From contig JAOAJY010000003.1 of assembly GCA_026413965.1 (NCBI GenBank), positions 27,727-91,726 on the forward strand: a DNA stretch of 64,000 bases. The letters are read 5' to 3'. Of this stretch, positions 33,810-63,667 are shown in pieces (positions within the stretch are counted from its first letter, which is position 1; each line of letters starts with the position of its first letter). The notes beneath the pieces were generated by a model. The model searched no databases. It saw only the letters and a program-made list of their open reading frames with translations, and had not been told where the DNA came from. Made by a program: the position numbers and the translations under genes. The stretch comes from Candidatus Micrarchaeota archaeon (GTDB lineage: Archaea > Micrarchaeota > Micrarchaeia > Anstonellales > Anstonellaceae).

Positions 33810-33962
33810 CCCGCCATAGCTCAACCTGGTAGAGCGCCTGGCTGTAGAAAAACAGGTCGGCAGTCAGCAATTGGGCTGGCAGTCATCAGGATGTTGTGTG
33901 TTCAAAGCCGGGCAGGTGGAAAATTTAAATTTCCTCTGGCTGAACAAATCACACTGGCGGGA
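33810..33962 (+). tRNA. tRNA-Tyr(GUA) with two introns (37/38 and T-loop)
   Basis: Hand fold: acceptor CCCGCCA/TGGCGGG (C1-G72); D arm GCTC-AACCTGGTA-GAGC; anticodon arm CCTGG-CTGTAG[33848-33884]A-TCAGG; T stem GTGTG/CACAC enclosing 49 nt (33901-33949) instead of 7; discriminator A. Confidence 0.8.
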
Positions 33963-33974
33963 CTCTGCCCTCGC

Positions 33975-34132
33975 GCCTCGATGGTGTAGTGGTCAGCATT
34001 CGAGATTGTCGGCATGCCTTTGCTTGCCCATGCGGCAGGAAGGCAGAGCAAAAATCTCGCGACCCGGGTTCGAAAGCTTTCGGCTGGCGCCAAAAATTTG
34101 CCTGCCAAAAGCCGCAAATCCCGGTCGGGGCG
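33975..34132 (+). tRNA. tRNA-Asp(GUC) with two introns (37/38 and T-loop)
   Basis: Hand fold: acceptor GCCTCGA/TCGGGGC (one U-G pair); D arm GTGT-AGTGGTCA-GCAT; anticodon arm CGAGA-TTGTCG[34012-34053]A-TCTCG; variable CGAC; T stem CCGGG/CCCGG enclosing 51 nt (34069-34119); discriminator G. Confidence 0.8.
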
Positions 34133-45398: not shown

Positions 45399-45501
45399 TG
45401 CGGATGCCGGGATTTCCACTTTCCCGAAACATGCGCCTTGATTTGAACCCGGACCTTTGACTTGGAAGGCCAAGATACTAGCCAGGTTATACTACATCCG
45501 C
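45399..45501 (-). tRNA. tRNA-Gly(UCC) with a 29-nt T-loop intron
   Basis: Reverse-complement fold: acceptor GCGGATG/CATCCGC; D arm GTAT-AACCTGGCTA-GTAT; anticodon arm TTGGC-CTTCCAA-GTCAA; T stem CCGGG/CCCGG enclosing 36 nt (45412-45447) instead of 7; discriminator A. An oligo-T run follows the 3' end. Confidence 0.75.
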
Positions 45502-63468: not shown

Positions 63469-63557
63469 TGCGACCGCCGGGATTTCCATCATGCGATTTT
63501 GAACCCGGCCCGCGAGATTGGCAATCTCGAATCCTAACCAGGCTAGACTACGGTCGC
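63469..63557 (-). tRNA. tRNA-Gly(GCC) with a 15-nt T-loop insert
   Basis: Reverse-complement fold: acceptor GCGACCG/CGGTCGC; D arm GTCT-AGCCTGGTTA-GGAT; anticodon arm CGAGA-TTGCCAA-TCTCG; T stem CCGGG/CCCGG enclosing 22 nt (63482-63503); discriminator A. Confidence 0.75.

Positions 63558-63591: not shown

Positions 63592-63667
<76 letters not shown>

Follow-up and report, generated by a model that had tools for sequence, protein, structure and literature searches.

Introduction

The closest described counterparts of the locus reported here are found in ARMAN-2 (Candidatus Micrarchaeum acidiphilum). The precursor of its tRNA-Cys(GCA) contains a 13-nt intron at position 59/60, framed by a relaxed splice motif of the hBH/BHL form (Fujishima 2011, PMC3239211), and this precursor is cleaved in vitro by the recombinant epsilon2 splicing endonuclease EndA (PMC3239211; PMC12397907). 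The ARMAN-2 pre-tRNA-Pro has two introns, at 53/54 and 59/60 (Fujishima et al., PMC3239211). The roles of the catalytic triad Y236/H251/K282 of the enzyme, and of lysine K161 in its specificity loop, were described by Hirata et al. 2012 (PMC3488258); cleavage activity was tied to the specificity-loop lysine in that study and in a 2025 structure paper (PMC12397907).

We report on a tRNA-Gly(UCC) gene with an insert of 29 nt in its T loop, in a tiny DPANN archaeon of the Micrarchaeota. It shares with ARMAN-2 pre-tRNA-Cys the phylum, the 59/60 position, the class of relaxed motif and the epsilon2 type of enzyme. It differs in that the tRNA is Gly-UCC, that the host belongs to an Anstonellaceae-like genus, and that the predicted intron is 29 nt long and unrelated in sequence. 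A second comparison is offered by the introns of Thermoproteales and other Crenarchaeota, which likewise occupy sites outside 37/38, including the T loop, have relaxed BHB motifs and disrupt many tRNA genes; some introns of different genes have sequence in common, as is seen here for Asp, Val, Leu-UAA and Arg. In contrast, Crenarchaeota belong to another phylum and possess an (alpha-beta)2 EndA instead of the epsilon2 enzyme, whereas here the 59/60 site dominates (about 20 genes) and the Gly(UCC) intron has no detectable sister copy.

Results

A tRNA-Gly(UCC) gene interrupted in its T loop

The window, that is the whole 64-kb stretch of DNA that was analysed, corresponds to positions 27727-91726 of contig C22 in assembly G000, a MAG of 770 kb in 28 contigs, with about 50% G+C and about 87% complete. 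The closest relatives of the neighbouring purB gene, with 72-81% amino-acid identity, are found in MAGs labelled Candidatus Micrarchaeota or Anstonellaceae. The gene and its parts are the following.

45399..45501, minus strand: tRNA-Gly(UCC) gene; precursor of 103 nt, mature tRNA of 74 nt without CCA
45442..45501, minus strand: 5' exon, tRNA positions 1-59, comprising the acceptor 5' strand, D arm, anticodon arm, variable region, T stem 5' strand CCGGG (45452-45448) and nt 54-59 TTCAAA
45413..45441, minus strand: 29-nt intron, very probably, at 59/60, TCAAGGCGCATGTTTCGGGAAAGTGGAAA; its removal restores the T loop TTCAAAT
45399..45412, minus strand: 3' exon, with U60, T stem 3' strand CCCGG (45411-45407), CATCCGC and discriminator A, read from the sequence

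The full minus-strand layout is GCGGATG-TA-GTAT-AACCTGGCTA-GTAT-C-TTGGC-CTTCCAA-GTCAA-AGGT-CCGGG-(36 nt)-CCCGG-CATCCGC-A. Its acceptor stem is GCGGATG/CATCCGC, followed by discriminator A, and its D stem is GTAT/GTAT (pairs G-U, U-A, A-U and U-G). The anticodon stem TTGGC/GTCAA carries the loop CTTCCAA, with anticodon UCC at 45466-45464, and the variable region is AGGT. The T stem CCGGG/CCCGG encloses 36 nt, TTCAAATCAAGGCGCATGTTTCGGGAAAGTGGAAAT, instead of the normal 7-nt loop, hence an insert of 29 nt. Both halves of the gene adjoin on one strand, with one promoter and one terminator; an oligo-T stop, CTTTTTTG, lies directly 3' of the discriminator.

The gene was reported neither by ARAGORN on the raw window nor by Rfam at the gathering threshold. 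With a permissive threshold, the Rfam tRNA model scored 28.7 bits, versus a cut-off of 29 bits, and misaligned the 3' half. The coordinates and the 29-nt insert had been proposed by a first-pass annotation of this DNA, and both hold: the 36-nt loop is read directly, and upon in silico removal of the 29 nt ARAGORN calls a tRNA-Gly(tcc) with the T loop TTCAAAT. In the whole assembly, this gene has the sole uninterrupted UCC anticodon arm that lies beside a T arm.

A relaxed splice motif in the T arm

Folding of the T arm alone (minimum free energy of -9.8 kcal/mol) gave the T stem, a UUCA/UGGA helix and a 3-nt bulge on the 3' side, and this local structure was unchanged in a constrained fold where the cloverleaf was enforced. 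When all 103 nt of the precursor were folded, the minimum-free-energy structure was no cloverleaf, and the T-arm-alone and cloverleaf-constrained folds were therefore used as a guide. The predicted elements are:

45444..45447, minus strand: 5' strand UUCA (nt 54-57) of a central 4-bp helix stacked on the T stem, in the minimum-free-energy fold of the T arm
45415..45418, minus strand: 3' strand UGGA (intron nt 24-27) of the central helix, in the T-arm fold
45441..45443, minus strand: 5' splice-site region A58 A59 / U (intron nt 1), in an internal loop and not in a strict 3-nt bulge
45412..45414, minus strand: 3-nt bulge A A / U60 with the 3' splice site, in the T-arm fold

A BHB-like structure, which the first-pass annotation had called for, can therefore be formed in the T-arm fold, in the relaxed hBH/BHL form: the structure has the outer helix, the 4-bp helix and a 3' bulge of 3 nt, together with a degenerate 5' bulge and inner helix. 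Past the 5' splice site, the inner side pairs weakly, with U-G and C-G, then A-U, G-U, G-U and C-G. A strict hBHBh' motif was considered and rejected, as just one C-G pair is possible after a 3-nt 5' bulge.

The modelled hBH geometry would fix the intron at 59/60, within the interval of about 58-60 that had been put forward as a shared insertion site. Owing to the repeated A's, the mature sequence would be identical for cuts at 57/58, 58/59, 59/60 or 60/61, so that the exact site rests on geometry and precedent. The arrangement has the local geometry of the canonical archaeal 37/38 intron with its hBHBh' motif. A stem of 5 bp is followed by a 4-bp helix, made by the first four loop nucleotides and the 3' part of the intron, and by a 3-nt bulge that ends in the final loop residue; each bulge would be cut behind its second nucleotide. 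In the T arm, 59/60 corresponds exactly to 37/38 in the anticodon arm. The Gly(UCC) intron differs in sitting in the T arm and in having a degenerate 5' bulge and inner helix h'.

The same register in T-loop introns across the genome

T-loop inserts were counted by in silico insert removal followed by ARAGORN, and by a scan that took acceptor stem and T arm as anchors. About 20 of the roughly 44 tRNA genes of this genome have an insert at the same T-loop site, 13-87 nt long, and many of them also have an anticodon-loop intron. Four further tRNA genes of the window, three of them interrupted in the T loop, are listed here.

33810-33962, plus strand: tRNA-Tyr(GUA), with an anticodon-loop intron and a 42-nt T-loop intron at 59/60
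33975-34132, plus strand: tRNA-Asp(GUC), with an anticodon-loop intron and a 44-nt T-loop intron at 59/60 (34072-34115)
63469-63557, minus strand: tRNA-Gly(GCC), 15-nt intron at 59/60
63594-63667, minus strand: tRNA-Gly(CCC), no intron; 37 nt upstream of Gly(GCC), T arm identical

The Tyr, Asp and Gly(GCC) inserts were said to have the same boundaries as that of Gly(UCC), and they do: TTCRAA precedes and T follows the insert in all of them.

For 18 T-loop inserts, pairing of nt 54-57 with the intron was scored for bulges of 0-8 nt. It peaks at a bulge of exactly 3 nt, with 49 of 72 pairs formed and 6 perfect helices; none of the eight other registers exceeds 36 pairs or 2 perfect helices. A G lies opposite C56 in 15 of these inserts (binomial p ~1e-6), and most of the introns end in AA / T. 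In Tyr, a 5-nt bulge gives the UUCA helix its best pairing. Since the 3-nt peak is found over all 18 inserts, the hBH register belongs to the whole class of introns in this genome and is not a chance fold of one sequence. Because nucleotides 54-57 are invariant, no compensatory changes can be expected in the central helix, and the conserved complementary end of the intron is the sole signal to look for.

Two further tRNA genes are interrupted elsewhere. The genes for tRNA-Val(UAC) and tRNA-Val(GAC), at C5:8329-8434 and C21:25344-25447 (both plus strand), have D-loop inserts of about 31-33 nt (GTCGAAT / ... / ATGGTCAAGAC). Both were missed by ARAGORN, and each has next to its 3' end a copy of the hairpin module described below.

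Invariant exons and unrelated introns among orthologues

A 33-nt core of the 5' half has exactly one occurrence, with no more than one mismatch, in G000 and in each of 21 among the 22 other genomes of the genus, some of them rated 97-100% complete; a pattern search did not find this core in the other six genera of the family. A first orthologue pattern, applied to purB-linked loci, was too strict, gave nothing useful and was superseded. The genus-wide pattern search, combined with direct reading of the loci (L084-L105), provided 21 informative genes, one of them truncated by the end of its locus.

Fifteen of the 21 orthologues have a T-loop intron at the same nucleotide and six have none. These introns are 29-225 nt long, the 29 nt of G000 being the shortest. 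Exons are nearly invariant across the 21 species; intron bodies are unrelated and cannot be aligned. The single occurrence of the 5' half in each genome and the conserved exons on either side of a hypervariable insert show that the interrupted gene is no product of chance. The ends of the introns are an exception: 13 of the 14 that were resolved end in TG..-AA before U60 (TGAA in eight, TGAC in three, TGCC in one and TGGA in one, that of G000), the remaining one having GGAG. This preserves the pairs C56-G and A57-U as well as the AA / U bulge. No significant homology was detected between the 29-nt intron body and 13 orthologous introns; when the 3' end was included, one weak match appeared, to the intron of G024 (p = 0.008, uncorrected).

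An anticodon-loop intron is present in 15 of the 21 orthologues. Six genes have the T-loop intron only, six the anticodon-loop intron only and nine have both. None is intron-free, for about 1.7 expected by chance, a difference that is not significant.

These data bear on the possibility that this copy is a pseudogene, broken by an insertion or by what an integrated element left behind, and that the functional tRNA-Gly(UCC) is encoded in the unassembled ~13% of the genome. In favor of it, completeness of the assembly is estimated at 87%, and tRNA sites of the genus do receive insertions of small repeat modules. Nevertheless, we consider a pseudogene very unlikely. The 5' half occurs exactly once in every genome of the genus that has it, the 97-100% complete ones included, and an insert at the same nucleotide in 15 of 21 orthologues, between near-invariant exons, is the opposite of decay. 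The oligo-T stop has been kept right behind the discriminator, and the roughly 20 tRNA genes with the same feature in this genome cannot all be dead. Every genome in which tRNA-Gly(UCC) was found has one copy of the gene, which must therefore produce a functional tRNA. An insert that is hypervariable and sometimes absent, between invariant exons, argues for an intron, and against both a pseudogene and an expanded loop of the mature molecule.

Splicing enzymes and proposed pathway

The genome encodes an EndA of 394 aa, in which Pfam recognizes the N-terminal and catalytic domains and whose residues 4-394 align with the ARMAN-2 epsilon2 enzyme (PDB 4FZ2, E = 3.4e-130). The equivalents of Y236, H251 and K282 are conserved, as is the specificity-loop lysine K161 (in the context GSYK here, versus GTYK in ARMAN-2). 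RtcB is encoded by a 479-aa open frame (PF01139 match of 590 bits, C26:19770-21071). Besides the full epsilon2 enzyme, a second, short EndA-like protein may be encoded at C11:130301-130543 (minus strand) by an ORF of about 171 aa. Its Pfam match, to PF01974, is of 26-27 bits, at the cut-off, and it weakly matches the N-terminal repeat of A. fulgidus EndA (E = 7e-6).

We consider it very likely that the 29 nt are a protein-spliced intron of the archaeal BHB type, at T-loop position 59/60 of the single-copy tRNA-Gly(UCC). The T stem of the precursor would extend into a 4-bp helix between U54-U55-C56-A57 and the UGGA close to the intron 3' end. On the 3' side, A-A-U60 would form a bulge of 3 nt, and on the 5' side A58-A59-U would lie in a looser internal loop, which is a relaxed hBH (bulge-helix-loop). 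The epsilon2-type EndA of this genome would cut after A59 and before U60, and RtcB would then join the exons into a normal T loop, UUCAAAU, with the predicted junction ...GGGTTCAAA + TCCCGG.... We infer cleavage, ligation and the exact cut sites in the Gly(UCC) precursor.

That the 29 nt are never spliced out, and that the mature tRNA keeps them in an enlarged T loop, is hardly credible in a genome that encodes an enzyme cutting exactly such substrates (PMC3239211). The 5' site, where just the relaxed motif is present, speaks in favor of such retention; the orthologous inserts, however, range from 0 to 225 nt, are unrelated and are unfit for a part of the mature molecule, and pairing with nt 54-57, which leaves a bulge of 3 nt, constrains the end of the intron. 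Moreover, general tRNA biology requires a T loop of 7 nt, which is needed for the elbow between T loop and D loop and for recognition by the ribosome and EF-1alpha.

Removal of the insert without EndA and RtcB, by a self-splicing group I-like intron, another ribozyme or split-tRNA processing, is no more credible: group I introns do occur in some archaea, Micrarchaeota-related lineages among them, but 29 nt is far below the size of any self-splicing intron (the ribozyme core of group I and II introns has at least about 200 nt), a search of the region against Rfam with E up to 10 matched no family except tRNA, and the halves are adjacent, on one strand, with one promoter and one terminator. A group I or II intron was rejected as a candidate on the 29-nt length and the Rfam match to tRNA only.

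Relationships between the T-loop introns

Transposition of introns between tRNA genes is an idea that reportedly goes back to Sugahara in 2008 and Fujishima in 2010. The first-pass annotation had read the Gly(UCC) insert in this way, on the grounds of an identical T arm and, more generally, of similar local sequence. Asp and the three Gly genes do have one and the same T arm, CCGGG-TTCRAAT-CCCGG. Gly(CCC), however, has this arm and no intron. Introns at 59/60 are also found in T arms with other stems, for example GTGAG, GGGAG, GAGAG and GGGGG. With T stems so different, the common feature is the universal TTCRA loop.

Further copies of the 29-nt insert were searched for with blastn-short in the genome and in the fetched loci of its relatives, and none was found. 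The Gly(UCC) insert had no significant similarity to those of Asp or Gly(GCC); in common with the Gly(GCC) intron it has just CGCATG and the constrained TGGAAA. Its best match is to Tyr, over 12 of 14 positions, with p ~0.01 before correction for the 153 pairs of an all-against-all comparison of 18 T-loop introns. A sister copy, by which 'transposed' introns are recognized, was thus lacking for the Gly(UCC) intron, and spread between genes is not supported in its case.

Other T-loop introns resemble each other at their ends. Those of Asp, Val (C11), Leu-UAA (C11), Arg (C2) and Ala-GGC (C21) have in common a 5' end AGCTTTCGGCTG and a 3' end CAAAAGCCGSAAA, with matches of 11/12 to 13/15. The 14-nt intron of the Val gene on C11 matches the Asp 3' end at 12 of 13 positions, the 5' ends of Leu-UAA and Asp agree at 11 of 12, and the Arg gene on C2 matches Asp at 13 of 15. 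These common ends hint at a common origin of that subset, which is plausible for some of the T-loop introns of this genome.

A hairpin module at tRNA processing cuts

Inspection of the interrupted tRNA genes also revealed a hairpin module of about 70 nt, consisting of CCCTAGGGGG, a variable loop of 14-26 nt and CCCCCTRAGGG-YTCACCCCC, often present as 1.5-2 tandem units. In G000 it is found right behind the discriminator of five tRNA genes, and it also fills the 37/38 intron of tRNA-Arg(UCU). The loci are:

C5:8435-8545, plus strand: hairpin module, G000
C21:11900-12011, minus strand: hairpin module, G000
C21:17570-17680, minus strand: hairpin module, G000
C21:25448-25560, plus strand: hairpin module, G000
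C24:21430-21574, minus strand: hairpin module, G000
C23:10610-10790, plus strand: hairpin module, G000
L085, L087, L092, L093, L103 and L112-L161: hairpin module, relatives

The 64-kb window has no copy of the module, and the 29-nt intron of G000 is without it. In several congeners, the module sits inside the same Gly(UCC) T-loop intron. Of 42 genomes in the family, 13 were found to have it by a pattern search, and an Rfam search with the module matched no family. In the two most complete carriers, G024 and G029, 18 of 19 module loci start 0-7 nt after a tRNA processing cut, eight of them at 59/60 and ten at a tRNA 3' end. Module loops are similar within a genome and different between genomes.

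The weak match of the 29-nt intron to that of G024 (ATGTTTSGGG(AAA)GTGGAAA, p ~0.008 uncorrected) lies at the module-proximal end of the latter. It is conceivable, though rather unlikely, that 59/60, 37/38 and the tRNA 3' end are landing places of a small element specific for tRNA processing sites, the 29-nt intron being perhaps a stump left after loss of the module. If so, the module may move by cutting and joining at the RNA level (EndA/RtcB), or the tRNA-processing enzymes may set it free as a small, defined RNA, perhaps a circular one.

Discussion

The anatomy of the interrupted gene, a foldable splice motif, its genome-wide register, the conservation among orthologues and the presence of genes for both enzymes are directly established for the Gly(UCC) intron. 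Since an ARMAN-2 intron at 59/60 was already cleaved in vitro in 2011, it belongs to a known kind: it is a further case of the 59/60 type described in Micrarchaeota, and ordinary for this lineage. Knowledge of the mechanism is unchanged; what is gained is one more lineage and a comparative series for a known phenomenon. The sole part that could lead to something new is the occurrence of the hairpin module at processing cuts.

There is a practical side. Standard tRNA finders overlook tRNA-Gly(UCC) and about twenty other tRNA genes of this genome, which is nearly half of the set. Because genes with a 59/60 intron are missed, annotations of Micrarchaeota MAGs report false gaps in the tRNA set unless such introns are modelled.

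For the biology of the genus, the series supplies a genome-wide signature of the relaxed hBH register, together with a single tRNA in which gain, loss and turnover of introns at one nucleotide position can be followed across 21 congeneric species.
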